A stretch of DNA of 64,000 bases, taken from NCBI RefSeq assembly GCF_053078305.1, contig NZ_CP166879.1, one strand, 5' to 3'. Below are positions 2,396-53,800 of the stretch, in pieces. Every line of letters begins with the position of its first letter. Position 1 is the first letter of the stretch. Position numbers and translations under genes: made by a program. The notes beneath the pieces were generated by a model, which saw only the letters and a list, made by a program, of their open reading frames with translations, was not told the DNA's origin and did no database searches.

Positions 2396-2397
2396 TC

Positions 2398-3120: not shown

Positions 3121-3150
3121 AAAACCCGCAACTTTGCTGATTTCACAGCC

Positions 3151-3166
3151 ACGCAACCGTTTTCCT
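3151..3166 (+). promoter_or_regulatory. Candidate PurR operator (PUR box) upstream of purEK
   Basis: acgcaaccgttttcct resembles the PUR box consensus ACGCAAACGTTTTCNT, about 70 bp upstream of the purE ATG. Confidence 0.5.
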
Positions 3167-3237
3167 TGCTCTCTTTCCGTGCTATTCTCTGTGCCCTCTA
3201 AAGCCGAGAGTTGTGCACCACAGGAGTTTTAAGACGC

Positions 3238-4811: not shown

Positions 4812-4825
4812 CCTGGTGCTCATTT

Positions 4826-4925
4826 GATTGCCGGATGCGGCGTGAACGCCTTATCCGGCCTACACCGATCCGGTACCCATTGTAGGCCTGATAAGACGCG
4901 TCAAGCGTCGCATCAGGCATGGTGC
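4826..4925. repeat. REP/BIME-type palindromic repeats
   Basis: gccggatgcggcgtgaacgccttatccggcctaca and gtaggcctgataagacgcg...cgtcgcatcaggc palindromic units between convergent purK and ybcF. Confidence 0.6.
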
Positions 4926-4949
4926 ACCGATTGCTGGATGCTCTCATCA

Positions 4950-7934: not shown

Positions 7935-9602
7935 TTATTGCAAACGTTCTAATAAACGAGCCAGTTTTTTATTGCCGCCGGCGACTGGCGACCATTGGTA
8001 ATGCACAACCGGTTTGCTGGCGCTTTGTAGCTCCAGCGCAAAACTGCGTAATCCGATGTTAATCACGGCGACGTTTTCCAGTAATGACGGTGTGTGTTGC
8101 TGTGCGGCAGGCGAGAGCGGATGAATTAACGCTGCCGCCAGCAAGGTGGCTTCCGGTAGCGAACTCACGACCGCAATCCCCGCATCTTCCAGCGTGGCGA
8201 TTTGCTGCGAGCGGCATTGCGGGTCACGTTCGGTACCTGTCACCGTGGCAATGGCGTACAGCGGTTGGCTGTCTGAACGCGCGGCACAGGCTTTTTGCCA
8301 GGCGCTCACCAGCGAGGCGGCAGGATCGGCGGTCGCGCCGAAGCCAATCACGACATCAAGTAGCAATACGCGCACTGACAGTTTAGCGCCGAGATCGGCA
8401 ATTAACTGGTTGCGTAAGGTTGGGTCGATCATCGGATGGGGACGCCCGACGGTGTAGAAATCATCGCCAAGGTCAATAATCTGGTGACCATCGGCGTCGA
8501 GCATCATGCCGTGATGATGGGCATCATCGGCTTCCACGCCAAGGTGTCCGGCAAGTAATCCCGCCGCTTCGGCAGCCAGCGTACCGCCGGTATACAAACC
8601 GCAAATAAATCCGCTGCTGACAGGTGCTATTGCGTTACGTCGCGCCGTGACGCGTGAAAGCAGGCAAGCCAGGCGTGCGGCCTCATCCAGCGAGGAGGCA
8701 AACCAGACATTCTCGTCGCGGGCCACCGCCGGGGTATAACCTAAAAACAGCGCCACCGTCGGTTTGCCGGTTGCTTTCATGGCATTAACAATTTTCAGAC
8801 GCACCGCTTCGGCAGGTGGTTTTGAAACAAATGCCAGCACTTCGCTTTTCTCGTCTGCACTGAGCATTTCCAGCGCCGTCAGCGCACTGATGCCGCCCAC
8901 TTCACGGCTGAGGTCGCGGCCGCCAAGGCCAATCGCGTGAGTAATTCCCTCCCCTGCCAGCGCAATCTGCGAGCACAGCTCCTGAATCCCGGTACCGGAA
9001 GCGCCAATGACGCCAATATTGCCTTCCGGCATCACGTTAGCAAAAGCCAGCGGCGTGGCGGCAATCATCGACGTACCGCAGTCCGGCCCCATCACCAGCA
9101 AGCCTTTTTCTCGCGCGCGGGTTTTAAGTTGGATTTCATCTTCCAGCGTGACGTTATCGGAGAACATCATCACGTTGAGGTTGCGATCCAGCGCCTGATT
9201 CGCCAGCTCCGCCGCATACTCGCCAGCCACTGAAATCAGCGCCAGATTGGCATCGGGTAATTTCTGACAGGCACTGTCCCAGCGACGCACCTGCGTCAAG
9301 GACTGGCTGCTGCCTGCCCCCTGCGCCAGTTGTTTTAGCGCCTCTTCAAGCTGCTGCATAATCGCCTGCGCGATCCCCGCATCCGCCGCTTCGCTACGAA
9401 TTGCCACGCAAATATCGTTCGGCGTGGCGTTATTAAAATCGTCATGCCAGAAACCTGTGGTATCTAATAACGCTTTATTGGCGGGCGTACCCATCATTAC
9501 GGAAACATCATCAACATTTTCTGATTCGCTGAGTTTTCGTGAAATAATCATTAAACTGACCGAATCCTGAAAACACCCTTTTTTAATAAAGGCGTGGATC
9601 AT
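7935..9602 (-). CDS. fdrA: FdrA protein (succinyl-CoA synthetase alpha-like / CoA-binding)
   Basis: 555 aa ORF (MIHAFIKKGCFQDSVSLMIISRKL...) at the expected position. Confidence 0.9.
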   Translation of the reverse strand: MIHAFIKKGCFQDSVSLMIISRKLSESENVDDVSVMMGTPANKALLDTTGFWHDDFNNATPNDICVAIRSEAADAGIAQAIMQQLEEALKQLAQGAGSSQSLTQVRRWDSACQKLPDANLALISVAGEYAAELANQALDRNLNVMMFSDNVTLEDEIQLKTRAREKGLLVMGPDCGTSMIAATPLAFANVMPEGNIGVIGASGTGIQELCSQIALAGEGITHAIGLGGRDLSREVGGISALTALEMLSADEKSEVLAFVSKPPAEAVRLKIVNAMKATGKPTVALFLGYTPAVARDENVWFASSLDEAARLACLLSRVTARRNAIAPVSSGFICGLYTGGTLAAEAAGLLAGHLGVEADDAHHHGMMLDADGHQIIDLGDDFYTVGRPHPMIDPTLRNQLIADLGAKLSVRVLLLDVVIGFGATADPAASLVSAWQKACAARSDSQPLYAIATVTGTERDPQCRSQQIATLEDAGIAVVSSLPEATLLAAALIHPLSPAAQQHTPSLLENVAVINIGLRSFALELQSASKPVVHYQWSPVAGGNKKLARLLERLQ

Positions 9603-26150: not shown

Positions 26151-26265
26151 TGAGGGACGTATTTGTATTAGTCGCGACTTGATCTGACACATGGCCTTGA
26201 AAGGTTGAGAGTTACCGGTTTTGATATGAGTGTCGAATCCTTATCCAAAACAAGAGGTAACTCTC

Positions 26266-26637
26266 ATGCTTCATACTGCCAATCCCGTCATCAAACACAA
26301 AGCCGGTTTGCTCAATCTGGCTGAAGAACTCAGCAACGTATCAAAAGCCTGTAAAATCATGGGCGTTTCGCGTGATACGTTTTATCGTTACCGCGAACTG
26401 GTCGCTGAAGGCGGTGTGGATGCGCAGATTAATCGTAGTCGCCGCGCTCCTAACCTTAAGAACCGTACCGATGAGGCAACTGAACAGGCTGTTGTTGATT
26501 ACGCCGTCGCTTTCCCGACACATGGTCAGCACCGGGCCAGCAACGAACTGCGTAAACAGGGGGTTTTTATCTCCGACAGTGGTGTCCGTTCTGTCTGGTT
26601 ACTCCATAACCTTGAGAATCTCAAAAGACGATACTGA
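26266..26637 (+). mobile_element. Truncated transposase (N-terminal HTH fragment, integrase-core IS type), likely pseudogene
   Basis: 124 aa from ATG at 26266 with SD aagagg; HTH-like segment (MGVSRDTFYRYRELV) but no catalytic DDE domain. Confidence 0.5.
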
Positions 26638-26669
26638 ACAAATTTTATCAGGTGACGTTCCGTAAAAAG

Positions 26670-26786
26670 TTGTATGGAGTTCTCGATGCAGTCGGCGCGA
26701 CTATCAGTACCCCCGCTGAACCCTGGACTATCGGGCCGCCGTACTGGGGCATGTCACCCTGGCGTGCCGCTGGTTTTCCGCTAATG
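26670..26786 (-). pseudogene. Vestigial rhs 5' (PAAR N-terminal) remnant with mutated start codon
   Basis: About 120 bp with clear nucleotide similarity to the 5' end of the main rhs gene (31740-31838); encodes [25 protein letters not shown], with the start ATG changed to ATT, then stops after about 45 codons. Confidence 0.55.
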
Positions 26787-27151
26787 GTTTATTTCCTCTT
26801 TCTTTCCCGGCAAGAATTTATTTTAATCCGGAAGGATTATTTATTTTCAGATAGGGACTCACATTAAACACGTAACATTTTAATTAATGCATGGCTGAAT
26901 ATGTATTACACAATGTCAGATATCGTAAAAGACCAGTGCAATTCTATGTAAACTCTCTGACTGTTCATTTTATTTGTTGTTTCAGGGTCGGAACTCACCC
27001 TCAATAAACAACTGAATACGAGTAGATATTCATCGTCTGAGCTATATGGCTTTACACAATAGTCGACATGTCTTTTCTCAGTCAGGAATTTTACTTTTCC
27101 TCACTACGAAGTTGACGACTTCGATATGGGATAGACTCTTAATTCAAGCAA

Positions 27152-27643
27152 TTACTCTGCACAAGCATCAGGCAATCCAGCTCCAATATTTGTTATAAAA
27201 TAATGCGTAACATTAATTTCACCAACAAAAAAAAGATTTACGCTATCCCCTTGCCCTGGTATTTTACCATATTTACACCACACTTTTTTTGTATCTGGAT
27301 CATTCTTTGATACGATTTTCGCCACTTGTTCCCTGGCCCTCACCGTCAATGTTTTCTTAAACCTCCCCCCATCATCGATTGTTAGGGAAAAATAAGAAAA
27401 AAAATAATCATCTTCTACATTTGTGGATATTGATATATCCACCGCTACGTGCGGAAAAAAATCTGGGAGCCATGTAAAAACTCCATCATTTTCTGGTATT
27501 GCCATATAGTTTATGTAATGCTTACTTACAAGAGATTCATCTTTGTGTAAATAAAGATAAGTAGTCACGCATAAAAAAACAACGATTATAATAGCAAAAA
27601 TAAATATTACCATCTTTGAGATGTTACTTGAGATAGCCAGCAT
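27152..27643 (-). CDS. Putative Rhs immunity protein (membrane-anchored)
   Basis: 163 aa ORF whose ATG overlaps the last codons of rhs; N-terminal TM helix ([22 protein letters not shown]); alternative start at 27613. Confidence 0.6.
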
Positions 27644-30600
27644 CTTGTAAAGCCTTTATCGTTTTTTTATGCTCTGGATTAATATAATCAATACATCTAT
27701 TTGAGCAATCTTGTGTTAATGGACATGTCAACCCATGTTCATTTACAGCCAAGTCTTTTTTATTATCTTCAATCATCTCAGAATGGGATAACTTTACTTT
27801 TCTGCCGTACATACCGAACATATTTAACCCGTAATCTCTAATCTCTTTTTCATAACCCAGCCCTTTCGCCGATCGGCTAACACCAGCGTCATTTAATTTA
27901 GACACTCGACAAAATGCCATACAATGGAAAAATTGATCAGTCCCACCTAAATTTAATCTCTTCATATCATCATAAGTATCAGATAATATATCCCATGCTC
28001 TTTGATGGTTTAGTTGTTCTTTTTTTCGCATTAACGCTACATCTGCAGGACTTAACCCTAATGGATCAATACCATTCACCGGATTCAGCGGATACGCATA
28101 CAGACTCCATCCCCCCGCCAGCCCAATCGGGTCCTGAGTAATATATCGTCCCAGCAACGGATTGTAGTACCGGTTCCGGTTATAATACAGCCCCGACTCC
28201 TCATCATACTGCTGCCCCGGCAGCCGGTACGGCTGGTGCAGGTGATGCGGGTTCTCCTCATTCAGCTGGTTGCCCCATTCATCATACTCCCCGCTCCACG
28301 CCGTATTGCCGTCTTCGCTGATGAGCGCCAGCGGCAGGCCCCGGTGGTCGCAGTGGTAAAGATGAACTTTTCTCGCCGGTGTGTATTCCGGCTCCACCTG
28401 TCTGGCCAGTTGCTCCACCGTCAGCCCGCACTGCGCAAGCCACGCCCGGCTTTCACTGCTCACGCGGTCTGCCCGGATTTCCCCCTCCAGCCTGTCCAGC
28501 AGCCCCACCAGTTCAGCCGGGAACACCACACCGTGGCCGTCTTCGCTCCCTTCCTGCTGCAGCTTCTCCGCCAGGCTGCGGCACTGCGCTTTCTCCCGTT
28601 CACCGTTGTCTGTTTCGATGCGGATGAGCGGCGCGAAGCTCCCCGGCTGGTATACCGTCTGGATACGCGTGGTGTCGGTCTGTACCGTCGTCAGCCGGTC
28701 GCCGTCCCATCCGTACCACGTCACCTCCGGTTTACGCGACAGCGACATCCATCCCGTCAGGTCACGCCCGCGACGCCACACCCGTTTTCCCGTCCGGCGG
28801 CCCAGCGGGTCGTAGAGGTAGCGGCTCTCGACCAGTGGCTCCTCATGCTGTATCCGCGTGTAAAACACCAGCCGGTGCTGGCTGTCGTAGTGGTAGTGGT
28901 GGGTCCGCTCGTCGTCCGTCCGTATCACACCCGTCGGGATGCGGTCCGTCTTCTCCGTCAGCCTGCCGTATTCATCGTAACGGTACAGGTAATGCGCGTC
29001 TTTGGTGATGCGGTTATCCGGCCACGCCGTGAGCGTGCTGTCCGGGTGCAGCTCCGGGTCCGGCAGGCGGTTGCCCGCCGGGTCGGTCGCATACGGGATG
29101 CGGATGTCCAGGTCCGGTGCGAGGGTGCGCACGCTCTCCAGCCTGCCCGTGGCGCTGTAGCCGTATTCCCGCGTCTGCCGGGGGGCGCTGATGCGCACCA
29201 GGTCGCCGTTGTCATTCCACCCGTAGTCACGGTCATATACCAGGCTGTTCAGGTGCTGGCTCTGTAACTGGCCTGCGGGGGTGTATGTGCTGGTCAGTTC
29301 GTATGCGGCATTACTGCCTGCCATGCTGCCGAAGCTGCGCACCGTCTCACGGTGCAGCCTGTCCCGCGTATACTCGACCAGCGGCGTCCCGCCCAGCTTC
29401 ATTCCCGCCAGGTAACCGCTGCCATACGTCAGCCACTCCACCGGCGGCAGGCTGTCCGGCGTGACGCGGTTTGCCAGCCCCTGTTCGTTGTATGCGTGTT
29501 TCGTCTCATGCTGCCACAGCAGTTCCCCCGTCTCCGGGTTCTCCACCGTCTGGCGTTCGCCGGTCAGGCGGCCCTTATCGTCGTAGCCGTAGTGGGCAGC
29601 GACACGGTGGCCTTCACTGAGATGGCTGATGTCTGTCAGCCAGCCGTGGCCGTCATACTGCCACTGCTCTGCCGGTTCACCGTTTACCGTGCGGTGAGTG
29701 ATACGGTCCGATTCATCGTAGTACCAGAGGATGACAAGTCCCTCATCCTCACTCTGTGTGAGTTTTCCGGTCAGGTCATAATGATAACGTTGCGTCCGCC
29801 CGTCAAAGCCGCCCTGCTGTACCAGCCGGTCCAGCGCATCGTAACTGAAGACGCTGTGGCTGCCGTTCTCGTTGGTCAGGCTGATGACACGTCCGGCAGC
29901 ATCGTACTCCATACTGCGCGTCAGCCCGCCCTGCGTGGTGCTGACCGCCTTTCCCCACGCATCGTACTGTGTCTCGCTCCGGTTGCCGTCCGGGGTGATA
30001 ACGGCAGTCAGGTCGCCTGCGGCGTTGTATTCATACCGCGTTTCACGGCCCTGTGCGTCTTTCACCGAGGTTAACCGGCCACGGTTGTCATAGCGGCGGT
30101 AAAGGCTGATGCCTTCCTCGCGGTGGACCGCCGTCATCTGGCCGAAGCGGTCGTATTCATAACGGGTCTGGTAGCCCGAGCAGTCGGTGAACGCCAGCAA
30201 CTGACCGTAGCGGCTCCACGTCATCTGCCGGGTGCTGCCCGTCGCATCTGTTGTTGTGGCCGGTAATTCACTGTGCGCATCATCATAGCGGTAGCGTACT
30301 GTCTCCCCGCTGCGCGATGTCTCCGTTACCAGCCTGTCCAGTTCATCATATGCCCGGCGGCTCTCCAGCCCGTCCGGGGACACCACCGCCGTCAGCTGGT
30401 TCCCGTCGTTATAGTAAAATTTCGTCTCCCGCCCGTCCGGTGTGGTGATGTCCGTGATGTCGCCTGACACCACATTCAGACCGTACTCTGTCCGCCGTCC
30501 CGCCGCGTCCGTCTGCGCCGTGAGCCTTCCTGCCGCGTCATACCCGCTGTGCGTGATGCTGCCGTCCGCCTGTTCCTTCATCACCACCCGTTTCAGCCCG

Positions 30601-31838
30601 GCCTCGCCTTCTGTATGCAGCACCTCACGCCGGTTCAGGCTGTCTGTGACGGTGATGCGGTCCTGCTCATACTGGTAGCAGTAACTCAGGCCTGCCGGGT
30701 TTAGTTGCTCCACCACCCGCCCCGCATCGTCGTAGCGGTAGCGCATCTCCGGCCTTCCCGCGTAACGGTGCGCCACCATCCGCCCGGGGTGCTGCGCGTC
30801 ATATGTGAAAGCGCGCACCTGCGTATTGCTGCGGTCATATACCGCCAGCAGTTCACCGGCCTCCGTATACGTGTACCGCGCCAGTGGCGCACCGGGCAGA
30901 TTCTCCGGGTATGCCGGGTCGTGCATCAGCCACACCGCCGAAAGGCGGATACCCCTGTCGGGGCCGTATTCGGTACCGGGCAGTGTGTCGGGGAACGCTG
31001 AGTCTGAAAGAGGGCGGGGGGTGTCAGGGGAAGATAAGGAAGCGGTGTGCTGTTTACGGGCCTCTTCCGCCCGCTGCGCCTGCGTGGTCAGCACCAGACG
31101 GAACTCCCGCCCGGCACCGTCCGTCACGCCGGTGATGTCCCCGGCCAGGTCGCCTGCGGCCTCACGCCGGTACACCAGCGTCCGCCCGAAGCGGTCCGCC
31201 ATCCCGGTAAGCACCCGGTACGGCGGCAGCGGCGCTGGCAGTACGTCCTCAGCACCCGGCACCCGCTCAGACCACCCCAGTATCCACCACGGCCCCTGTG
31301 CGCTGTTGGTCGCCAGGTAAAGATGCGGGCTTAACCGGATATCCGGCGGCAGCGACGCCCACAGCCGTGCCAGCGTATGGCCGTCCGGCTGTGCTGCCTT
31401 ACCACCGCGCACCAGCCACAGGGACTCGCTGCGGCTGTACACCGCCTCACCCGGCAGCAGCGGCTCAAAGTGAATGCTCCGTCCGCCGTCGTTGTCGTTG
31501 AGTACCAGTGCATCATCGCGTAGCTGTAAGCGGATATCAGAAGGCGCTTTCCAGCCGGGGCCAAAAATCCCCACCGGTGCAGGCGTCTTCGTCCGGTAGC
31601 TGCTGTAGGTGCGGGAGAGAATGAACGGCAGCGGGCCGGGCAGCGCAAGGTCCGTCTCGCCGGGCAGCACCTTCGCCCCCAGCAGCGGATTTACCGGGTT
31701 GCCCGAAGTCATCCCGCCCGGACACACCGAGCACGACACGCCAGTTGGCGCGCCAATTCTTACACCTGCCGAACCCTGGACAATGGGACCGCCATACTGA
31801 GTCATATCTCCCTGACGCGCCGCTGGTTTTCCGCTCAT
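27624..31838 (-). CDS. rhsD: Rhs-family polymorphic toxin (PAAR N-terminus, YD-repeat shell, C-terminal toxin)
   Basis: 1404 aa with PAAR-like N-terminus ([25 protein letters not shown]), many YD/RHS repeats, and DPxGL boundary ([10 protein letters not shown]) before a roughly 150 aa C-terminal tip. Gene symbol is by synteny only; the tip may differ from K-12. Confidence 0.92.
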
Positions 31839-32267
31839 ATAAAGTGCCCTTTTAGTTATTGTTCATATCCCTGTGTTAGCAACAAAAAAAAATAAAATGA
31901 CACACAAGACCAACTAATGTATTTATATATTTTTCACATAAACTTATTTGTTCTCAATCAACAACAACTGTTATTACAGGTCACTTTCAATATTTTATTA
32001 AACTAAAATTTTTAGCACAGATGAATTCATCATCAACAAATTCACTATATGGATAATATCCATTCAACGCATATGATTTATGATTTTATTAGTCTGAGTT
32101 ATTTTTGTAGGGCTATATTTAAATTATTAAACTCCACCGATTCAGATTAATATCAGCAATAGAAAGATAGGAAATCACCAATTCAATAACATCATCAATG
32201 AAACATATTGTAGAATTAATTTAAACAAGGCGTTCCATTCAACCAGAACGCCCCTTATTTACTCTCA

Positions 32268-34682
32268 TCACCCCGCAAACTGCCTGAACAGCGCCTTACC
32301 CTTAACCAGTCTCGCGCCCAGCCAGCCGCCGAAAAGCGACAGCAGCAGCGCACCGCTGCACGGCAGAACAATCCACAATCGCCAGTCTGGCTCCCACGGA
32401 AAATCAAACACTTTCGCCTGCAACACTGCCAGCGCCGTTTCCGCACCAATTGCGGCCACCAGGCCGGAAACAAACCCAAGCATGGCGAACTCACACCACA
32501 ACGTGGTACGCAGCAGTTTTTTCCCCGCACCGAGTGTGCGCCACACCACCAGCTCCTGATGACGCTGACGCATTCCCACCTGCACCTGTGCCAGCAACAG
32601 CAACATACCGCAGGCGGTGACCAGCACCACCATCACCTCCAGCGCCCGACTTACCTGCTCCAGCACCTGACCGACCTGTTTTAAAATCGCGCCAATGTCT
32701 AACAGGCTAATGGTAGGGAACTGGCGGTTGAGTTGCGTCAACATGCCGTTGCCATTCTCACAGCGGAAACTGGTAAGCCAGCTCTGCGGTTGCCCGTCTA
32801 ATGCCCCTTCAGGGAAAATAAAATAGAAATTAGGCCGCAAACTTTCCCAGTCCACTTTGCGCAGGCTGGTCACTTTAGCGCGGAACTCCTGGGTATCGCC
32901 CATAAAAGTCACGGTATCGCCGAGGGTAACGTTTAAGCGTTTCGCCAGCCCCTCTTCCATCGACACTTCATCAGCTTTTGGCGGCCAGTTACCGGCGACA
33001 ATCGGATTATGATCGGGCCGCGTATTTTGCCAGGTAAGATTGAGTTCGCGGTTGAGCGCCTCATCTTCATTGCCTTCTGTCGGCTTGCCGTTAATCGCCG
33101 TCAGCCGCGCTCGCACCACCGGATAAAACGATTCCGAGACTATCTGATGTTCCGCGAGGAACGCTTTTAGCGGCGTAACCTGTTCTGTGGCGATGTTGAT
33201 TAAAAAGTAGTTCGGGCTTTCTGGCGGTAGCTGTTGTTGCCAGCGGTCTAGCAGATCGCCACGCAACACCAGCAGCAGCGCCAGCAGCATAAAGGAGAGC
33301 GAAAAAGCTGAAAGCTGGCTTAACGTTGACCACGGCTGACGTAACAGGCGGCTAACCGCCAGGCGCAGAGGCAGCGATTTCAGCGTCATGCGGCGAAGTA
33401 CATTCAGCAGCATCCAGCCCAGCACACCGCACAGCAAAGCCAGTACTACCGCGCCCGCCAGCACCGCCCAGAGCAGCATACTGCCGCCCATTAATCCGGC
33501 AAGCAGCAGCACAACCACCACACTGACAATCGGCAGATAAAACTTCAGCGGCCAGACGTTCGCTACCACATCATTACGTAATACGCGTAAAGGCTGCGTT
33601 GCCAGCAACAAGCGGTACGGTCGTAGCCCCACCAGCAGCGAGATGACTGTCATGGTGCCAAGCGCCCACAGCCACGGCCAGAGACTGGCAGGCGGTAGTG
33701 CAGCAGGCAGAACGGGCTTGAGCAGCACCATCAACACGTTTTCGAACAACAGGCCTATCGCCCCACCGGTAACGGCTGAAAGCGCCAGCACCATCAACCA
33801 CTGACCGACGATTAGCTTACGCAGTTGCGCTCGCCCTGCCCCCAGCGTTTTGAGGATCGCCACCAGATCGTAGCGACTGCGACAGTAATGATTCATCGCT
33901 ACCGCCACTGCTGCCACTGCCAGCAGCAAGGTCAGAAGCGCCGAAAGCAGCAGGAACTGTTGCGAGCGTTCCATCGATCGCCCCAGCGCGCCTTCGTCCT
34001 GTTCCAGACCGTACCAGCGTTGTTCGGGTTTAAGCTGAGGTAACAACCATTTCTCATAGCTGTCGAGCTGGTTCTCGCTGCCGCCGAATTTATAACGCCA
34101 GGTGACCCGACTCCCCGGCTGCACGGCTCCGGTTTTATCGACATCAGCCAGATTCATCATTAGACGCGGAGCCATCTGGAAGGGGTTAAAACCGGAATCC
34201 GGTTCCTGAATCACTTCTCCGGCAATCCGCAAGGTGGCATCGCCCACGTCAATGGTGTCGCCCGTTTTCAGGTTAAGCAGTGCCATCAGGCGTGGGGCCA
34301 GCAATACGCTGCCCGCCTGCGGTTTCAGGCCAGGGGGATTGGTTTGCAGATCGCCATACATCGGGTAGATATCATCCACCGCTTTGACGTTCGCCAGCTG
34401 CGGTGTGTCGCCTGCAAATGTCATGGTGGCGAAAGTCAGCTGCTTGCCGACTTTCAGGCCGCGCTTTTGCGCTTCCTCCAGCCATGCTTGCGGCACTTCG
34501 CGCGAACTGCGCAACGCCCGATCGCCCGCCATAAACTCCCGGCTTTGTTGGCTTAAGCCCTTCTCCATGCGATCGCTGATATTGCCCAGCGCCAGCACGC
34601 AGGCCACCGCCAGGCTTAGCGCCAGCCAGACAATTAATAGCGACGGCGAACGCCATTCGCGCCAGAACCAGCGTGCAATCAT
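32268..34682 (-). CDS. ybbP: ABC transporter permease (FtsX/MacB-like)
   Basis: 804 aa polytopic permease; start overlaps the ybbA stop. Confidence 0.92.
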   Translation of the reverse strand: MIARWFWREWRSPSLLIVWLALSLAVACVLALGNISDRMEKGLSQQSREFMAGDRALRSSREVPQAWLEEAQKRGLKVGKQLTFATMTFAGDTPQLANVKAVDDIYPMYGDLQTNPPGLKPQAGSVLLAPRLMALLNLKTGDTIDVGDATLRIAGEVIQEPDSGFNPFQMAPRLMMNLADVDKTGAVQPGSRVTWRYKFGGSENQLDSYEKWLLPQLKPEQRWYGLEQDEGALGRSMERSQQFLLLSALLTLLLAVAAVAVAMNHYCRSRYDLVAILKTLGAGRAQLRKLIVGQWLMVLALSAVTGGAIGLLFENVLMVLLKPVLPAALPPASLWPWLWALGTMTVISLLVGLRPYRLLLATQPLRVLRNDVVANVWPLKFYLPIVSVVVVLLLAGLMGGSMLLWAVLAGAVVLALLCGVLGWMLLNVLRRMTLKSLPLRLAVSRLLRQPWSTLSQLSAFSLSFMLLALLLVLRGDLLDRWQQQLPPESPNYFLINIATEQVTPLKAFLAEHQIVSESFYPVVRARLTAINGKPTEGNEDEALNRELNLTWQNTRPDHNPIVAGNWPPKADEVSMEEGLAKRLNVTLGDTVTFMGDTQEFRAKVTSLRKVDWESLRPNFYFIFPEGALDGQPQSWLTSFRCENGNGMLTQLNRQFPTISLLDIGAILKQVGQVLEQVSRALEVMVVLVTACGMLLLLAQVQVGMRQRHQELVVWRTLGAGKKLLRTTLWCEFAMLGFVSGLVAAIGAETALAVLQAKVFDFPWEPDWRLWIVLPCSGALLLSLFGGWLGARLVKGKALFRQFAG

Positions 34683-44507: not shown

Positions 44508-45679
44508 CGTTCGCGCAACGCCTCCTGTGCTTTGTTAAAGGGTTTCAACAGATAATCCAGCACGCTTTTTTTGCCGGTGCGGATATCGACCGTCGCCACC
44601 ATACCGGGGAATATCGGAAACTGCTGTTTGCTTTTGTTTTCCAGATGGTTGCTGAAAGTGCGAATGTACACCCGATAGTAATAAACATCGCGCCGCACTT
44701 CATCCTGCACGGTGTCTGGTGATATCACCGCTACTTCTCCCGGCAGACCGCCGTAGATGGAGTAATCGTAGGCAGTTATTTTCACCAGCGATTTTTGCCC
44801 CGGATGGATAAACGCCACATCGCGCGGGGAGATTTTTGCCTCAATCAGCAGTTGCTCATCCAGCGGCACGATGGTCATCAGTTTACCACCGGGGGCGATG
44901 ACGCCGCCAACCGTGGTGACGTCAATATCCTGAACAATGCCACGAACTGGCGCAGTAAAGTTGAGCCTGGTGAGGGAGTCTTCACGCCCACGGATCACCG
45001 AACGCTGGGTTTCCACTTCCGCATTGGCTTTCGCTAACTCTTCCCGCGCCTGAACGTAGTATTGCGTGCGCACGTCGCTGAGTTTGTTTTCCAGTTCATT
45101 GGCCTGGCGTTGCAGGCGCAGCACTTCGACGCTGCTCGCCGCCCCCTGTTTCACCAGCGGCTGGGTCATCGCCAGTTCACGGTTGACCAGGCTAATCCCC
45201 TGCGTCAGCCCGGTGGTGGCTTTGTTCAACCCGTCGCGGCGAGTGTTGTACAACGCCGTTTCCGACTCGATAAGTTCGGGGAATTTATTCAGTTCGTCAG
45301 GGAAGACCAACGGTTTATTGCTCACTTCCGCCCGCAGCCGCGCCGAGGTTGCCAGCGCAGCGTACAGCCGCGACATCGCTTCCTGGACGTCGGATTCCGT
45401 TTTAGTGCGGTTAAGCTGCGCCAGCGGCTGGCCCTGTTCGACAATATCGCCAACTTTCACGTTCAGATGATACAGAATTCCGCCTTCCAGCGACTGCACC
45501 ACCTGTTCGCGCCCGGAAGGTTCTACCGTGCCGCTGCCGGTGGTGACTTCATCAAGCTGGAAGTACCACGCCCAGCCGAGAAAACAGAGCAGCATCACAG
45601 CGGTAACGCGTACCGCCAGCGCCGAACGCGGCAAGCGGGGTTCAGTCAGGCCACGGTTGTATTGCAGTTGTCCGTTCAT
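44504..45679 (-). CDS. Type I secretion periplasmic adaptor (HlyD family membrane fusion protein)
   Basis: 391 aa: cytoplasmic N-terminus, one TM helix ([14 protein letters not shown]), long coiled-coil and lipoyl/beta-barrel regions; ATGA-coupled to the upstream ABC gene. Confidence 0.88.
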
Positions 45680-47838
45680 GCAGCAGACCCCTTATTCTTC
45701 TCCTGCAACACCACCCGTCGCGCCGTGGGTTCGCTCTGTTCACGCAAAATGGCCTCTTTCGCGCCATCCATCACAATCCGCCCCTGATCCATCACGATTA
45801 TCCTGTCCACCAGCTGCAGCATCGCCGTGCGGTGAGTGGCGATGACCAGCGTGCGATGTCCAATCCACTGTTTCAGATGTTCGATTAAATGCGCTTCTGC
45901 CATTTCGTCCAGCGAGGCGCTGGGTTCGTCGAGCAGCACGATATTGGGTTGAGAGATGAGTAGCCGCGCCAGCAACAGCGTTTGTCGCTGACCGCCAGAG
46001 AGGCCAAATCCTCCTTCCTGAATCATGTAGTTGAGACCGTTTTTCTGCTTCTGCACAAAGGGCAGCGCCCCGCTGAGGGTTAACGCGCGTTCGATATCTT
46101 CATCGCTGGCCTCCGGCATCCCCATGGTGAGGTTTTCCCGCAGCGAACCAAAGAACAGTCGCCCGGTCTGGCTGAGTAGCCCCATGTCTCGCCGCAGATC
46201 TGCCGGATCAAGCTGCCCGATACTGATGTTATCCAGCAACACCTGCCCCTGCTGGGCGATACGCATTCCAGCGAGCATTTGCAGTAGCGTCGATTTACCC
46301 GCGCCGTTGCGCCCGAGAATGGCGATTTTCTCACCAGCCTGAATGTTGAGTTTGCCAATCGCTACATCGGCAATCTTCTCTTCTTCGTCGTAATAAAACA
46401 CCGCGTTGCTGAACTGATAATTACCGTGCAGCACCGCTTTATGCACCAGTTTGCCGTGTTCCGGCTGATCCACCGGGCGCTTCATCAGTTCATCCAGGCC
46501 GTTACGCGCCACCTTTGCCTGCTGCCAGCGCGAGAGCACGCCGGATATCTGCGACAGCGGCGCGATGGTGCGCGAAGCCAGGATCGTCGTCCCGACCAGC
46601 GCGCCGGTGGTCATGTCGCCGTTCATCACCATAAAGCAGCCCACCAACAGCACCACGACGTAGACGATGGATTGCACTTCCTGGGTCCAGGTGAGCAGTA
46701 GCCCGGTGAGAAAACGTTGCTTCATGCTGATGGACGAGGCCACATCGTTGGTGTGATTCCACTGATTCTGGAAACGCTGTTCGGCGCGCAGCAGTTTAAT
46801 ATCTTCAATCGACTGCACGGCTTCGACAAGCGTAGCGTTACGTACCGCCGACTCGCGCATCCCTTCGTTCGCCAGCCGCGCCAGCGGGCGTTGTACCAGC
46901 AGGCCGGGGATCACCAGCAACGGCAGCGCCAGTAAAACCACCAGCACCAGCCAGCCGCCAATCATCCACAAAATAAAGACAAACAGCAGGAAGAACGGCA
47001 GATCCGCCACCGCGCCGATGGTGGTGGACGTAATAAGCTCCCGCACTGATTCCAGTTCGCGGATCTGCGAGATAAACGATCCGGTGGATTTCGATCGCAC
47101 GTTGTTTTTCAGCCGTAGCGCATGACCAAAAACGCGATCCGAAATACGCAGGTCTGCCCGCTTGCCGATCACATCAGATAGATGCGTACGCACCATGCGC
47201 ATACAGAACTCAAACAGGATCGCCATCATCACCCCGGCGAACAGCACCCACAGAGTCGGGTACGATTGCGCCGGAACCACCCGATCGTAAACCTGCATCG
47301 AGAAAATCATCGCCGCCAGCGCCAGCACGTTCGCCACCAGTGACGCCAGCATAATATCGCCGTAGCGCCGCCAGTCTTTTAGCGAAAGACTCCAGAACCA
47401 GTTCGCCTGATACGGGCGAATATAGTCATCTACCCGCGCGTCAGGGATGGCGCTGAGCGGGCGCAGTAGCGCCAGTTCAACGATTTTATCCTCGACATCC
47501 GCGACGTTAAGCGTGGTTTCCAGCCCTTCGTCACCGCTGAACTGAACGCTGATATTGTCATGATTGTCGCGACGGGTGATCACGCCAATCTGCTGATTAT
47601 CAAACACCGCGATCAGCGGCAGACGCCAGGGGTTAAGCGAATCGGCGGAAAACTCCACCAGCCGTAACCCCATTCCCAACTGCCGCGCCATGTCGGTGAG
47701 CAACTCTTCCCGCTTACTGTCGCGCTCCCAGTTGACGGTCGCGCGCACATTCTCCTGAGAAAAATCGAGCCGATAATAGCGCGCCACGGCGATCATCGCC
47801 TCCAGCCAGGCTTCCACGGACTGGGCATTTTTTTTCAT
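45676..47838 (-). CDS. Type I secretion ABC exporter (HlyB type, N-terminal C39-like domain, TMD and NBD)
   Basis: 720 aa: N-terminal roughly 130 aa C39-like domain with no candidate catalytic Cys, six-helix TMD, Walker A (GRNGAGKST), signature (LSGGQRQ), Walker B (LLDEPSASLD); ATG 3 nt after the adhesin stop. Confidence 0.9.
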   Translation of the reverse strand: MKKNAQSVEAWLEAMIAVARYYRLDFSQENVRATVNWERDSKREELLTDMARQLGMGLRLVEFSADSLNPWRLPLIAVFDNQQIGVITRRDNHDNISVQFSGDEGLETTLNVADVEDKIVELALLRPLSAIPDARVDDYIRPYQANWFWSLSLKDWRRYGDIMLASLVANVLALAAMIFSMQVYDRVVPAQSYPTLWVLFAGVMMAILFEFCMRMVRTHLSDVIGKRADLRISDRVFGHALRLKNNVRSKSTGSFISQIRELESVRELITSTTIGAVADLPFFLLFVFILWMIGGWLVLVVLLALPLLVIPGLLVQRPLARLANEGMRESAVRNATLVEAVQSIEDIKLLRAEQRFQNQWNHTNDVASSISMKQRFLTGLLLTWTQEVQSIVYVVVLLVGCFMVMNGDMTTGALVGTTILASRTIAPLSQISGVLSRWQQAKVARNGLDELMKRPVDQPEHGKLVHKAVLHGNYQFSNAVFYYDEEEKIADVAIGKLNIQAGEKIAILGRNGAGKSTLLQMLAGMRIAQQGQVLLDNISIGQLDPADLRRDMGLLSQTGRLFFGSLRENLTMGMPEASDEDIERALTLSGALPFVQKQKNGLNYMIQEGGFGLSGGQRQTLLLARLLISQPNIVLLDEPSASLDEMAEAHLIEHLKQWIGHRTLVIATHRTAMLQLVDRIIVMDQGRIVMDGAKEAILREQSEPTARRVVLQEKNKGSAA

Positions 47839-47841
47839 TAT

Positions 47842-50800
47842 CTACACCACCATCAACTGATGATTCGCCAGCAAAGTGGCGAGGTCGGTGTGCACGCCCG
47901 TCAGCGTGACCACGTTAGTTGTCGCAAAAGTGCCGCCCGTGCCGTCGCGGTCGATCTGCACGATGGTGTCGCTGCCGCTCTGGGTGACTTTGACAAAGTC
48001 ACCGATGTTTCCGGCCTGCGCATCCAGCGTCGCCACGCCGTTGACATAGCTGGCTTTGCCGTTTCCGGTGTAGCCGCTGCCCTGCAACAACTCGCGGATA
48101 TCAATGCGATCGGTGTCGGCAGTGCCTTCCCAGGTGCCTACCGTAAAGCCATTCACCACATCCGAACCGTTGCCGCCAGTGGCGTCGCTGGCGTTGAGCA
48201 GTTTATAGAGCAAGGTGTCGTGGCCGCCGTTGCCGATGTTGAGCGTGTCGTTGCCGCCGCGCCCTTCCAGTTGGTTATCGCCGCTGCTGCCGGTCAGAGT
48301 GTCGTTAAAATTCGAGCCGGAAATACCTTCGATATTGGTAAATGTCGAGGTGTTAAAGCCGGTGGCCTGCGCGGCAGTGCTGCTTAAGTTCGCGGTCACG
48401 CCCACCGTCGAAAGCCGGAAATCAACCACGTCCATCCCGCCGTTCGCCAGCCACGTTCCGGTGCCGGAGCTGTACACCCAGCCGCCGGAACCGTCGTAAG
48501 TGTCGGTGCCTGCGGTGGCAAAGAAGGTGTCGTTATAGCCCGTACCAACGAACTTGCCGTTGTTGCTCGCGGTGCCCGCTTCAGCGCTGAGATCGTAAGC
48601 GTGAGTGGCATCGGTAGCCTGCAAACCACCCCAGCTGGTGTTGACCGTCTGGTCGATATTGCTGGCGGTGGTGCCGGTGGATTTGATCAGCACCGCGTTG
48701 TAGGTTTCTCCGGCATTCAGCCCGTAGAAGTTGACCAGCGCCGAGGTGTCGTTAACCCCCATACCCGACTGCGGGTTGATGATTTGCGTGGCGACCAGCA
48801 CTCCCGCCGAGTTGTACAGCTTCACGGTATTGCCGTAATAGACGTTAATGCCGTTGGGATCGGTGATGCGCAGGTGTAGCGAAGTGCCGTAGCTCACCGT
48901 GTTGGTGTTGCGGATCAGGAACACGCTGCCCGACTGTTTGGTCACCAGTACATCAACCGCGCCGTCCCAGTCGTAATCCATTGCCGCCACGCCGCTGGTG
49001 GTACCGCTCTGGCTGCCGCCGAGGGCCGATTGCGTCCAGTTGCTGGCACCACCAACGTTGGTGTAAAGATACGATTGTCCGGTCTGGGCGATACGGGCGA
49101 TATCCATCAGGCCGTCATGGTTCCAGTCCACCGCCAGGCTAAACTGGCTGGCGTAGGTGGTTGCCGTTGCGCCCACCGCCACCGGGCTACCCAGTACGCC
49201 GTTGGTGTTGAATAACAGCGAGCCGTAGTTAGCTCTTCCCTGGCTGGCGGGCAGGAAGAGATCCATATCGCCGTCACCATCGAAATCGGCCCAGGTCATG
49301 GAAACGCTGCTGCTCATAGCGCCACTGCCCGCCCCGCTCAAGAAGGTATTGGTGGTGTTCTGCCCCCAGACAAACGTCCCATTCCCCTGGTTGATGAGCG
49401 AAGATAGCGTGTAATAGTTGTTCAGGTTGTAGGTGTGCTGAACCAGGTCGATCCTGCCGTCATTGTTCAGATCGACGCCAGAACCTTCGTTGAGCGAAAG
49501 ATACCCCGTCACCGCCCCGCCCACCGTGGCGCTACCGCCGCTGTTCGACGTGGTGGAGTTACCTACCAGCGTACCTGCGTTGTTCCACAGGAAGGTGTTG
49601 GAGTCCGGCCCGCCCGCGTCGCCAATCCAGAAGTCGAGATAGCCGTCGCCCTCTTTATCAAATGCCACAATCGAGCCGTACCACGTCAGGGTGCCGACGG
49701 TGACCTGAATAGCGCTGGAAAAGGTGCCGTCGCCGTTATTGGTAAAGCCGTTGATATAGCCTGTACCGTAGTCATCACGGGTGATAAACAGATCGCCCGT
49801 GCCGTTACGGTCGTAATCGGCGATGGAGCTGGTGGCGTAGTTGTTGCCGCTCTGATACAGCGTCAGCGCGGTCTTCGACCAGGTGAGTGGGTCAGTCGAT
49901 TGCATTACCTGCTGGTTTGCCAGCACCGTCCACATCCCGTGCGAGTCGAGGCCGTAGGTCAGCCCCCAGGCGGTGGTTTTGCTGGCGGTAGTCCAGGTCG
50001 GTGTGTAATCAATCGCCGCGTTAACCGTCACCGTGCCGTTGCTAATATTGGCGTTATTGCCGTTACCCGCCGAACTTTTTACCTGCGCAGTAACGGTATA
50101 GGCGGTCGCGGAAACTGTCAGCGCATCGGTATCCGGCAACTGTACATACCAGGTGTTGTGCGCCGGATCGACCACTACCGCGCCGCCCGGTTCAGAGGTG
50201 TAGGTTTTGCCGTTGATCACCACTTCAACATACTGCCCACTGGCAAGCGCGGCGGTGATCACCCCGCTGATAATCGGCGTAGTATCGCGCGTGGTCTGGC
50301 TGGTGATTTGCGCCAGCGTGGTCGGAATAGAGGTATCGACCGTCAGGACAAAATCACTGGAGGAGGTGATATTCCCCGCCAAATCCACCACTCGCGCGCT
50401 GTAGGTATAGGCACCGCTCACCAGCCCGCTGTCGCTGTAGGTCCAGTTCAGAGCGCCGACCATCGTCACCGCCCCTAACAGCAGCCCGTTACGGTAGAGG
50501 TAAACCACTTCACCGCTGGCAAGCGGCGCGGAAAGTACACCGTTCAGCAGCGGCGTAGTGTCGTCGGTGGCCTGCGAACTGCTTAATGTCCCCTGCCGCT
50601 GCCCGACATCATCGGTATACGACACAATGGTTGGCGTGGCGGTAGGGTTAATCGTATCGACCACCACCGTTTTCGATACCACCGGGCCGGTGTTCCCCGC
50701 CAGATCCAGCACCCGCACCTGATAAACGTAGCTGCCGTCGGTCAGCGTGCGGCTATCGGTGTAAGTCCACTGCGTGCCGTTGGTGGTAAGCGTGATCCAG

Positions 50801-53800
50801 GTCGCGCCGCTATCAAGGCTAATCTGCGCCACTTCGCCGCTGGCAAGCCCCGCTCCCAGCGAACCGGTCAGCGTGAGCGTGGTATCGCTGGTGATAAAGT
50901 CAGTTGCCGAACTCCCCGTGTCGGTGCTAATGCTGGCGATGGTCAACACCTGCGCCGGGTTAACGGTGTCAATCTGCGCCGACTGGCTGCCGGTTGCGCC
51001 AACGTTGCCCGCCAGATCGACCACCCGCACCTGCCAGGTGGTGGTGCCGTTGGTGAGGGTTCGTCCGTCAACGTAACTCCAGTTCAGGCCGTCTGCTGCT
51101 AGCGTCACGTTCACCCAGGTTGCGCCGTTGTCGGTACTGATTTGTGCGAACTCATTAGCGCCGAGCGCCGCGCCCAACACGCCGCGCACGGTAAGCGTGG
51201 TGTCGCTGGTAATAAAATCGCTGCTGCTGGTTCCGGTGTCATCGCTGATGCCGGTAATGGTGATACTTTTCGCCGCTTCCGGGCTGGTGGTATCGACCAC
51301 CACGTTTTGCGTTGCGGTCTGCCCAACGTTCCCCGCCAGATCCACCACCCGCACCGTGTAGTTCCAGGTGCCGTCAGTCAGTGTGCGACCATCGGCATAG
51401 CTCCAGCTGGTGCCGATAACGGTTAACGTAGTCCAGGTGACGCCGCCGTCGAGGCTGATTTGCGCCCGTTCATCGGCGGCAAGCGCCGCGCCGAGCGTGC
51501 CGCGCACGGTCAGCGTGGTGTCGCGTGTAACAAAATCGCTGCTGCTTAACCCGGTGTCATCGCTGATGCTCGCAATGGCGATGGTTTTGCTCGCCAGCGG
51601 CGCGGTGGTATCCACAGTGACTATCTGGCTGGCGGTCGCGCCGATATTTCCGGCGGTGTCGATCACCCGCACCTGGTAGTTGTAGTTGCCATCGGTCAGC
51701 GTACGCCCGTCAAGATAGCTCCAGGTCAAACCGCTTACCGAAAGATTCTGCCAGGTGGTGCCGCCATCAATGCTGATTTGCGCGAACTCACCGGCAGAAA
51801 GCGTCGCCCCCAGCGTGCCGCTCACCGCAAGCGTCGTGTCGCTGGTGACAAAATCGTTAGTGATCAAGCCCGTATCGGTGGTGATCGCGCTGATGGCGAT
51901 GGTTTTCACCGCGGGATCTGGCGCGGTAGTGTCGATCACCACATTCTGGCTGTCGGTCGCGCCAACGTTGCCCGCTGCGTCAATCACCCGCACCTGATAG
52001 AGATAGTTGCCATCGGTCAGCGTGCGGCTGTCGTTATAGCGCCAGGTCGTGCCGGTAACGGTAAGCGTGGTCCAGGTTGTGCCGCCGTCGATACTTATTT
52101 GCGCCGTCTCGTTACTGGCAAGCGCGGCGGTGAGCGAGCCGTTGACCACTACCGGACTGACGCTGGTGATAAAGTCGCTGGCGCTAAGGCCAGTGTCGGC
52201 TTGCAGGGAATCGATATTAATGCCCATCGCCGGAGCGCTGAGATCGACGGTAATGGTGTGATTACTGCTACCGGTGTTGCCAATGGCATTGCTCACCGAG
52301 GCGTTAATCACGTAAGCATTGCCGTCCGCCAGCGCGGTAACATCGGCGCTGCCTAGGGTGTAGCTCCAGCTACCGCCGGTCTGTACCGTGGTGGTGTAGG
52401 TTTTGCCGTTTAAGGTCAGGGTCAGCGTCTGTCCGACCGGCGCGGTGGTGGTGCCGCTGATCACCAGCGACGAGCCGTGTTCTGCTGCATTCACCACATC
52501 ATCGCCCGCAAAGGTGTTGATGGTGACGGTGGGCACGTCGCCGTTCAGCGTCACGCCACGGCTGGCGCTGCCGGGGTTTCCGGCCTGATCGCTAACCGTC
52601 GCGCTAATGGTGTAGCTGCCGTCGCTTAATCCAGCAAACTGCTGCGCCGGAATAAACACCGACCAGCTTCCGCCGCTGCCGACCGTTGTGGTCCAGGTTT
52701 GCCCGTTAAAGGTAACGGTCACCGTCTGGCCCACTTCGGCGGTGGTGGTGCCGCTGATGGTCTGCCCGGCAAGCTGCTCGGCGTTGTTGATAATATCGTC
52801 ACCCGCCACCGTGGCGATGGTGACCGTTGGCGCAACGGTATCGACGGTCAGGGCGTGCGTGGTTTGACCGGGGTTACCGGCACGATCGTTCACGCTGGCG
52901 GTAATGGTCTGCGCACCCTGCCCGAGCGATGCCAGATCCGCCGCAGGCACGTTAAGCGCCCAGGTGCCATTGGCGGCAACCGTGGCGGTATAGGTTTTGC
53001 CGCCAAAGATCACGGTGACCGTCTGCCCTACTTCCGCGCTGGTCGAGCCGTTAAGGGTTAACGGCTGCTGCTGTTCGGCGGCGTTGAGTCGGTCGTCCGT
53101 CGAAACGGTGTTAATACTGATAACCGGCGCGGTGAGATCCACCGTCACGCTGCGTGAGGCCGTGGCGCTGTTTCCGGCACTGTCCTGAGCGGAGGCGCTA
53201 ACCGTGTAGCTGGTGCCATCCGCCAGTGCCGCGACGTCTGCCGCCGGCACATTCACGCTCCAGCTCCCGTTGCTCTGAATGGCAGCGCTGTAGCCTTTGC
53301 CGTTAAGCAACACGGTCACCACTGTACCTGTCGCGAAATTAGTGCCAGTGCCGCTCAGGGTCAGCGCACTGCCCGCTTCGGCGGCGTTAATAATATTATC
53401 GCCGCTGATGGTGCTGACCGAGAGCGACACCGCCGCCGTATTGACCTGCACGTTGTGCGTCTGCGTGCTGCTGTTGCCTGCGCTATCGGTGATGGTGGCG
53501 CTGATGGTCACCGTGCCGTCTGCAAGGCCGGAAATCACGCTGGCAGGCACGCCAACGCTCCAGTTGCCGCTGGCATCGGTGCTGGTGACATACTGCTGCC
53601 CGGCGATGGTCACCACCAGGCGGTCGCCTGCGACCGCGCCCGTGGCGGTGCCGCTGATAATCTGCGCCTGAGTGTGTTCGACGTTGTTAATCACATCATC
53701 GCCCGCCACGGTGTTAAAGCTGATCACCGGCGCGGTGGTATCGACGGTCACACCTTTGCTGGCGCTGCCAGGGTTACCCGCCAGATCGCTGACCGTAGCG

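Follow-up and report, generated by a model that had tools for sequence, protein, structure and literature searches.

What does a domain that resembles serum amyloid A (SAA) do at the end of an Rhs protein of Escherichia coli, and what is the role of the small gene that overlaps it? SAA has been a clinical marker for decades, and its biochemical activity is not agreed upon. According to a computational proposal made in 2025, SAA and its relatives in bacteria act as enzymes on lipid head groups and stem from bacterial toxins. Ordinary E. coli carries an intact example: in a stretch of 64,000 nucleotides (nt) from contig NZ_CP166879.1 of assembly GCF_053078305.1 (the whole of which is hereafter called the window), a full-length rhs gene ends in an SAA-like tip and is followed by an intact partner gene, ybbD.

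We propose, with a probability of roughly 55%, that this tip is delivered to the periplasm of a neighbouring cell, where it attacks phosphate-linked lipid head groups, and that it is neutralised by YbbD. The gene structures and family identities on which the proposal builds are, taken overall, held with high confidence. The locus itself is already known, in that the gene, the SAA-likeness of its tip and the partner family are all in databases or papers. An earlier note, made from the letters alone, had described it as a PAAR-Rhs toxin with a tip of uncertain family and an overlapping, membrane-anchored immunity gene. The parts of the locus are as follows (aa, amino acids; ORF, open reading frame).

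27624..31838, minus strand: rhs, full length, 1404 aa plus stop (ORF list; RHS_core match; synteny)
27627..28052, minus strand: toxin tip, 142 aa, Rhs residues 1263-1404, AT-rich (composition; position of DPLGL)
27678..28004, minus strand: SAA-like domain, tip residues 17-125 (Pfam SAA; hhalign; family profile)
27152..27643, minus strand: ybbD, intact 163-aa form, predicted cognate immunity protein (NF011298; homologues with PF26610)
27624..27643, minus strand: overlap of rhs and ybbD, 20 nt (ORF coordinates)

The tip of Rhs is a bacterial SAA-like domain

Scanned alone, the tip matches the Pfam SAA model (PF00277) with independent E-values (i-E) of 2.5e-4 to 4.3e-4. A profile built from five close relatives of the tip (A1) was searched against 1.8 billion representative proteins and retrieved 116 of them at E<=1e-3, in which the domain lies nearly always at the extreme C-terminus, often after DPxGL. 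Proteins with a canonical SAA domain are among these matches, for example P0077 (E 4.9e-9), a carrier of PF00277, and the matches form an unbroken gradient from the subclade of the tip (DQFFHC-AFCRVSK ... VNE-GL-CP) to canonical bacterial SAA-like sequences (DKYFHCKANCEA ... ANxxGR). Among 48 aligned sequences with identity to the tip down to 23% (A2), 31 give individual matches to Pfam SAA at E<=1e-3, the best of them at 6.7e-24, and the profile of this alignment, run against the PDB, finds solved SAA chains at E 3e-14 to 1e-11 and no other significant match. When a profile of the tip's subclade alone (A5) was aligned by hhalign with 19 canonical sequences from the published Prok-SAA set (A6), the two matched across tip residues 20-125 (probability 97.9%, E 4.5e-13). 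The tip sequence alone, compared with PDB sequences, matched only through shared Rhs core residues, with SAA at E 0.19. The link from the tip to animal SAA runs through bacterial intermediates, since A5 by itself reaches the animal proteins only at E of about 0.2.

Judged from these profile comparisons, the tip belongs to the SAA-like family of bacteria. It is non-hydrophobic (maximum 19-residue hydropathy 0.55), as is characteristic of Prok-SAA domains, and the PADLOC defence models gave no meaningful match to either the tip or YbbD.

The family has been described in silico. Burroughs, Nicastro & Aravind (eLife 2025; PMC12419801) defined the Lipocone superfamily and, within its SAA-Wnt clade, the Prok-SAA family, whose domains form the tips of polymorphic toxins, including PAAR/type VI secretion system (T6SS) and RHS architectures, and proposed for the superfamily a conserved His/Glu/Asp active site that works on phosphate-linked lipid head groups. 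Two proteins close to the tip appear in their table of Prok-SAA sequences, HAU8267270.1 (57% identical) and WP_074823867.1 (59%). An in-silico survey of enterohaemorrhagic E. coli (EHEC) in 2020 had modelled the C-terminus of EDL933 RhsD (z0651) onto human SAA1 and listed seven O157:H7 PAAR-Rhs proteins carrying PF00277 (PMC7216683). The earlier note's view that the tip is of uncertain family is thus superseded: the SAA-like (Prok-SAA, Lipocone) domain was already in print. That note had suggested a domain search, and had added that a match to a well-characterised toxin family would speak against it; the search gave Pfam SAA for the tip and NF011298 for the small ORF, and the SAA-like toxin family is, strictly, a computational one.

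Residues conserved in the tip

Across the 48 sequences of A2, D39, H43, C44, E70, D100, N104, G107 and C120 are invariant, and C48, D73, D96 and C116 nearly so. H43, E70 and D100 occupy the H2-His, H3-Glu and H4-Asp positions described for the superfamily, and D73 corresponds to the acidic residue that closes H3 (PMC12419801). By their place in the alignment, H43, E70 and D100 are the proposed catalytic residues of the superfamily, retained in the tip. All conserved catalytic and cysteine positions are kept in the window, K-12 and O157:H7 alleles.

A membrane-anchored partner gene follows the tip

The ATG of ybbD lies at 27643, 20 nt inside the reading frame of rhs, whose stop codon occupies 27624-27626; the earlier note had correctly placed the start of this ORF within the last rhs codons. 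YbbD matches NCBIfam NF011298, the source of its RefSeq name ('YbbD family protein'), over residues 1-163 of 163 (374.6 bits, cut-off 326). Pfam PF26610 (YbbD_head) is recorded on homologues of YbbD; a Pfam scan of YbbD itself gave only a chance match to Ac76 (i-E 0.53) and no PF26610 match. The N-terminal transmembrane helix that the note had recognised is evident in the Kyte-Doolittle profile.

27548..27622, minus strand: transmembrane helix of YbbD, about residues 8-32 (hydropathy maximum, a 19-residue mean of 3.03 at residues 8-26; helix 3-32 in the model)

In the AlphaFold2 (AF2) model of YbbD (predicted local distance difference test, pLDDT, 85), this helix is followed by an alpha/beta domain of eight strands and two helices. 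Foldseek comparison of the model with AFDB50 returned unannotated YbbD-head proteins and lipoproteins, together with weak matches to DUF1254, DUF4830 and DUF4825; neighbours in AFDB bear the name 'YbbD head domain-containing protein'.

A YbbD-like gene lies directly downstream of a divergent SAA-like tip at each of the following loci.

L004: tip 56% identical to the window tip; downstream protein of 173 aa, YbbD_head
L006: tip 48% identical; downstream protein of 168 aa
L007: tip 44% identical; downstream uncalled ORF of 171 aa
L008: tip 40% identical; downstream protein of 156 aa
L009: tip 35% identical; downstream protein of 143 aa
L011: tip about 33% identical; downstream uncalled ORF of 160 aa

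The family shares a motif around WLPDFFP...DI, in which P64 and I70 are invariant, and its N-terminal anchor is either a transmembrane helix or a lipobox (LLAAC in L009; LALSGC in L011 and in Xanthomonas proteins). Two cysteines are common to many members; outside the anchor there are at most two conserved cysteines, and none in some members. The anchor and the recurrence after divergent tips fit a periplasmic immunity protein. Imm-SAA, the immunity family described for Prok-SAA toxins, consists of one helix and four strands with four absolutely conserved cysteines (PMC12419801). YbbD and its relatives share with it a transmembrane or lipoprotein anchor and a position directly after an SAA-like tip, but are otherwise unlike it, in a comparison made with the verbal description only; YbbD is probably a further immunity family for SAA-like tips. 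The interpretation put forward in the earlier note, that of an Rhs toxin overlapped by the gene of a membrane-anchored immunity protein, gains support from family membership, from gene context and from the YbbD-like genes that follow divergent tips, with immunity itself a prediction.

Residues 34-153 of YbbD also match a second model, NF007301 (PRK09781.1, 'hypothetical protein', 181 positions), at E 1.2e-16 and 60.8 bits, below its cut-off of 373. A guess that this model stands for K-12 YbfC, of the rhsC orphan module, and that YbbD is related to YbfC was rejected (BLASTP E 0.65).

Positions 1832-5667 of L004 and L005 (GCA_003324795.1 CP029992.1; GCA_025072755.1) hold a stack of orphan Rhs modules after the main rhs gene. 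The first pairs an Ntox16-like fragment with a DUF6714 protein, the second is an SAA-like tip plus a YbbD_head protein, and in the third a TseH-like protein is accompanied by Imm58. The array is a good example of stacked displaced tips, one of them a relative of the window module.

The Rhs shell

Over residues 1-1262 the protein matches the NCBIfam equivalog model RHS_core with 2733.6 bits (cut-off 2000), and YD_repeat_2x matches in seven stretches mark the YD-repeat shell. GC content drops from 60-69% in the rhs core to 31-37% across the tip and ybbD. A variable tip of differing composition followed by a small gene, with another tip at the same site in K-12, is the pattern of Rhs polymorphic toxins. 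Three further domains and motifs were located.

28053..28286, minus strand: Rhs-associated core domain with the two-aspartate autoproteolysis motif DPIGL...DPLGL, residues 1185-1262 (TIGR03696)
31479..31703, minus strand: DUF6531 Rhs header domain, residues 46-120 (Pfam PF20148, i-E 6.1e-18)
31752..31835, minus strand: PAAR-like motif, one repeat only, residues 2-29 (Pfam PAAR_motif, i-E 0.14 and 1.6)

TIGR03696 scores 83.4 bits (cut-off 32.5). The motif DPIGL...DPLGL spans residues 1236-1262, with PVNGI just before DPLGL itself, whose position (1258-1262) agrees with the end of the core given in the earlier note. By analogy with solved Rhs/Tc cocoon structures, the tip is expected to be cut free after DPLGL. 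The tip exists as that note had it, and both protein strings quoted from it lie inside, although its length is 142 rather than roughly 150 aa.

Rhs proteins of this build have been termed 'PAAR-Rhs' (PMC6730261, PMC7216683). Of that name, as used in the earlier note, the Rhs half is borne out by the RHS_core score, and the PAAR half is doubtful, with a single repeat matched weakly. The protein is found without genetic linkage to vgrG, eagR or a T6SS cluster, which places the locus with the 'neighbourless' Rhs class. By its architecture, the locus belongs among the Rhs polymorphic toxins, with its PAAR identity and its connection to a T6SS both tentative.

The locus in K-12, O157:H7 and other E. 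coli

The gene order tesA-ybbA-ybbP, rhs, ylbG-selU-allS is that of the E. coli rhsD locus, inverted relative to K-12; rhs is bordered at one end by ybbP and ybbA, and at the other by an rhs 5' remnant, ylbG and selU. The window sequence is 99.8% identical to annotated genes of other E. coli. At the same chromosomal site, the K-12 element comprises rhsD, ybbC, the pseudogene ylbH (an orphan Rhs C-terminal fragment, which starts with its own Met inside core sequence) and the pseudogene ybbD. The rhs cores share 95% DNA identity. As the earlier note had anticipated, the module differs from that of K-12 rhsD: the window lacks positions 7999-8982 of the K-12 locus (L001 in our BLAST comparison), which encode RhsD-CT and ybbC, and its tip and ybbD are instead the counterpart of ylbH/ybbD, with 97.7% DNA identity. 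In K-12, these additional 984 bp for RhsD-CT (annotated DUF4329) and the YbbC immunity protein push the SAA-like tip to an orphan position, and ybbD is frameshifted, whereas in the window the SAA-like tip sits on a full-length rhs beside an intact ybbD. One core segment is shared by both ends of the K-12 arrangement.

28090..28301, minus strand: core segment of 212 bp with matches at two K-12 sites, the 3' end of the rhsD core and the start of ylbH (two overlapping BLAST alignments)

This segment is a likely substrate for recombination leading to displacement or deletion of a tip, and the window would show either how the locus looked before a C-terminal displacement or what recombination between repeated core segments has left.

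About half of complete E. coli genomes carry the module: 3202 of 5426 match the DNA of tip plus ybbD, 2722 of them across >=80% of the query. The RhsD-CT/ybbC segment is found in 1896 of the 5426. Both arrangements appear in RefSeq, as 'RHS element core protein' (full length, as in the window and O157:H7) and as 'RHS repeat-associated core domain-containing protein' (orphan). The exact YbbD of the window occurs on 822 contigs and its exact Rhs on 17.

The tips of K-12 ylbH and O157:H7 RhsD are each 93% identical to the window tip at the protein level; that of O157:H7 differs at about 11 of 142 residues. EDL933 RhsD (z0651) shares the locus and the tip allele family with the window, and its Pfam SAA motif was likewise noted. 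In O157:H7 strain SS TX 313-1, unlike in the window, ybbD is cut to 86 aa by a shortened T-run and carries a second 1-nt deletion. Positions 1826-6263 of that locus (L014) encode a full-length Rhs of 1398 aa with an SAA-like tip, in which all conserved residues are present, beside the 86-aa ybbD; the strain apparently has an intact toxin gene without an intact immunity gene, as read from its sequence.

A proposed mechanism

From the gene structures, families, conserved residues and pairing of tip and YbbD described above, we infer a secretion route, a compartment, a substrate and immunity by binding. Inside the YD-repeat cocoon that rhs encodes, the aspartyl-protease motif DPIGL...DPLGL would free the 142-aa tip. 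The Rhs protein would then be injected into adjacent cells, probably through a T6SS whose genes lie in another part of the genome; this route is suggested because E. coli Rhs-CT proteins that are 'neighbourless' and of the same build, among them O157:H7 Rhs-CT5, are reported to act through a T6SS (Ma et al. 2017, as summarised in PMC6730261). The soluble, cysteine-rich tip would act in the periplasm, at the outer face of the inner membrane, where it may cleave or exchange phosphate-linked lipid head groups, for example those of undecaprenyl carriers, lipid II among them; the analogy here is with TelC. In sibling cells, YbbD, tethered to the inner membrane and with its alpha/beta domain exposed to the periplasm, would bind and block the tip.

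Periplasmic action is favoured because of the conserved cysteines and low hydrophobicity of the tip, the transmembrane or lipoprotein anchor of its partner, the precedent of TelC and the membrane anchoring of all published Lipocone immunity proteins. TelC, the only characterised Lipocone toxin, cleaves lipid II and is toxic only outside the cytoplasm, and the published Lipocone immunity proteins are all transmembrane proteins or lipoproteins (PMC12419801). Activity of the superfamily on phosphate-linked lipid head groups is predicted from TelC and PTDSS1/2 only (PMC12419801). Compartment and substrate, drawn from these analogies, we regard as somewhat short of even odds.

A T-run in ybbD

The main variation in ybbD was found by nucleotide alignment with K-12 and O157:H7.

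27397..27404, minus strand: homopolymer of eight T (T8) inside ybbD

K-12 and O157:H7 have seven T (T7) at this site, and the resulting frameshift leaves an 86-aa 'YbbD head'. Beyond the run, the K-12 frame is still open, with only two amino-acid changes. A second T8 run lies at 27227-27234 (minus strand), and O157:H7 has a 1-nt deletion there too (T7). Alleles of the first run were counted as exact matches of 89-90-nt probes in complete genomes, of which 2684 match the 90-nt ybbD probe.

K-12-type allele background: T7 (frameshifted) 1695; T8 (in frame) 523
Window-type allele background: T7 (frameshifted) 7; T8 (in frame) 249

Since T7 and T8 both occur on both backgrounds, the run is a site of recurrent mutation. 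In T7 strains, silencing may make immunity dispensable, the head may suffice, or slippage may restore the frame. The frequent frameshift speaks for a module that, in many strains, is mostly silent, with the window genes themselves intact.

In K-12, a sequencing survey of transposon insertions (TraDIS) found the ORF of the 86-aa ybbD head free of insertions and passing the essentiality threshold (bioRxiv 10.1101/237842). Binding of H-NS and StpA covers K-12 ybbC-rhsH-ybbD, and the insertion-free stretch has been attributed to such binding (PMC9948719). The two accounts stand unreconciled.

It is conceivable, though we doubt it, that YbbD immunity is switchable at the T8/T7 run or resides in the first 86 residues, which hold the transmembrane helix and the WLPDFFP motif. 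Were the head protective, or full length restored by slippage, E. coli would have tunable immunity to a periplasmic SAA-like enzyme, and the run would offer a natural genetic handle on the biochemistry of SAA-family proteins.

Alternative explanations

Several observations weigh against the proposed mechanism. A search of the literature returned no toxicity, secretion, substrate or protection experiment on the tip, on the ylbH/ybbD pair or on any SAA-like toxin; for ybbD, ylbH, SAA-like toxins and work following up the Lipocone proposal it gave in-silico statements only, besides the TraDIS and H-NS reports. The PAAR_motif match (i-E 0.14 and 1.6, residues 2-29 only) is non-significant, and T6SS, vgrG, hcp and eagR genes are absent from the 64-kb window. 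As to the fold, which in Prok-SAA domains is a four-helix cone with a short fifth helix, A5 run against the PDB ranks animal SAA structures at the top, at E 0.2-0.7; the AF2 model of the tip, made from a shallow alignment of five close sequences, is all-helical with a pLDDT of 66.9; and Foldseek, given this weak model, places SAA structures 4ip8, 6pxz and 4q5g first at non-significant E-values of 0.75-2 (TM-score 0.38-0.50). In the sNxxGR motif of H4 the tip reads A-V-N-E-H-G-L, so that N104 and G107 are kept and Arg has become Leu throughout the subclade. The binding of H-NS and StpA over the K-12 genes belongs here as well, and so does the state of ybbD, which is frameshifted in about 63% of the 2684 carrier genomes, with the tip intact; such a combination is difficult to reconcile with a toxin that is both active and expressed, unless the locus is silent or protection comes from the 86-aa head.

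That state might also be expected of a silenced or decaying relic, repressed by H-NS/StpA, rarely or never deployed and persisting by drift and rhs recombination, of which the window pair would be an allele still unbroken. In its favour are the preponderance of T7 (1695 + 7 genomes, against 523 + 249 with in-frame T8, among the 2684 matching the probe), the second 1-nt deletion in O157:H7, the annotation of both ylbH and ybbD as pseudogenes in K-12, the H-NS and StpA coverage of K-12 ybbC-rhsH-ybbD (PMC9948719), and the lack of T6SS genes nearby in the window. However, the 1404-aa Rhs and 163-aa YbbD of the window are both uninterrupted, the exact YbbD sequence recurs on 822 contigs, the catalytic and cysteine positions of the tip are all kept in the window, K-12 and O157:H7 alleles, and K-12 ybbD keeps an open frame past the run, with two amino-acid changes only. 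Silencing by H-NS is, moreover, usual at functional rhs and T6SS loci and is no sign of lost function. On balance we consider a relic possible but unlikely. Still less probable is that the tip is non-enzymatic, a lipid-binding or membrane-perturbing domain that does harm by lipid sequestration or permeabilisation: animal SAA binds lipid, retinol and OmpA without demonstrated catalysis (PMC12419801), solved SAA3-retinol structures are among the Foldseek matches of the tip model, and the R of sNxxGR is L in the window tip, but the invariant proposed catalytic triad, together with D39, D73, D96 and N104 conserved down to 23% identity, fits an active site better than a binding surface, and the tip is without a notable hydrophobic or amphipathic segment (maximum 19-residue hydropathy 0.55).

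Two other readings change the target rather than the chemistry, and we give very little credence to either. A tip directed at the host, mimicking SAA so as to modulate inflammation or chemotaxis, was suggested for EHEC RhsD, where the model of the EDL933 C-terminus resembles human SAA1 with a TM-score of 0.623 (PMC7216683, in silico). Against this, the window tip shares 20% identity with human SAA1 when the two are aligned by structure in Foldseek, commensal and laboratory E. coli carry the module equally often, and in enterobacteria, Xanthomonas and metagenomes a dedicated membrane-anchored partner goes with the tip and with its divergent relatives, which is the signature of an inter-bacterial toxin and its immunity protein. 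Alternatively, tip and YbbD could act inside the producing cell as a pair resembling a type II toxin-antitoxin system, expressed from internal promoters; S. Typhimurium Rhs-CT modules show both internal promoters and intracellular toxicity (PMC7043789), and the K-12 orphan ylbH has its own Met within core sequence. A cysteine-conserved tip without a signal peptide would, however, miss its predicted periplasm-facing partner if it stayed in the cytoplasm, and K-12 and O157:H7 tolerate an intact tip alongside a truncated YbbD. We retain delivery to the periplasm of a neighbour, with YbbD as the cognate immunity protein, as the preferred reading.

Surroundings of the locus

Upstream of rhs lies a region of low GC content.

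31839..32267: AT-rich intergenic region, about 29-40% GC, presumed promoter and silencing region (composition)

A single promoter-like site was found there, at 31957-31929; promoter and terminator scans of 26600-32400 gave site counts not above those in shuffled sequence. Downstream of ybbD, a 97-nt remnant of an rhs 5' end (26689-26785, minus strand) is 79% identical to 31742-31838 and is the counterpart of the K-12 pseudogene ylbI. The ORF at 26230-26637 (plus strand), counterpart of K-12 ylbG, marks the outer edge of the Rhs element; in other genomes ylbG is annotated as a helix-turn-helix fragment, 'incomplete; missing C-terminus'.

Farther away, two blocks of the window, 40696-44099 and 44604-64000, are without a match in the K-12 stretches compared (488-562 kb) and are separated by a fragment like the K-12 cueR region. 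They contain ORFs for a YadA-like protein (41586-43388), an adaptor of the HlyD family (44504-45679) and a type I secretion ABC permease/ATPase (45676-47838). A giant ORF (47842-63981) of at least 5379 aa, whose start lies at or past the right edge of the window, is known from annotation elsewhere as SiiEA, a BapA-related adhesin. In 835 complete genomes, 80% or more of 40600-52000 is covered. At about 4867-4941, two neighbouring BLAST alignments with K-12 share 75 nt in the window and abut in K-12 (at about 551.4 kb, between ybcF and purK), which suggests that, relative to K-12, a short segment is duplicated or is a repeat element.

Comparison with known systems

The main value of the locus is as a tractable test system for the enzymology of the SAA family, together with the unexplained state of ybbD across E. 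coli. Because K-12 is naturally without an intact ybbD, it provides a simple genetic system for the proposed activity, compartment and immunity mechanism.

The closest described system is Prok-SAA. The tip has the same domain by profile, the same His/Glu/Asp positions, the N-x-x-G motif, the C-terminal cysteine pair and the same place at the end of an Rhs protein. Its subclade differs in reading DQFFHC-AFCRVSK and VNE-GL-CP where canonical sequences have DKYFHCKANCEA and ANxxGR, in a longer insert between H3 and H4 (LYG...LSHxEM) and in an extra C-terminal helix ending in GYL; its neighbour, moreover, is YbbD, unlike the Imm-SAA described for the family (PMC12419801). From the study of EHEC RhsD (PMC7216683) our reading departs in function, since a host-directed role was proposed there and the gene context here argues for an antibacterial one. 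The likeness to TelC/TipC of Streptococcus intermedius, a lipid II phosphatase of a type VII secretion system with a membrane-anchored immunity protein (PMC12419801), is one of analogy: in the working model common to both, a soluble Lipocone toxin is active only outside the cytoplasm and is countered there by a membrane-tethered, extracytoplasmic immunity protein.

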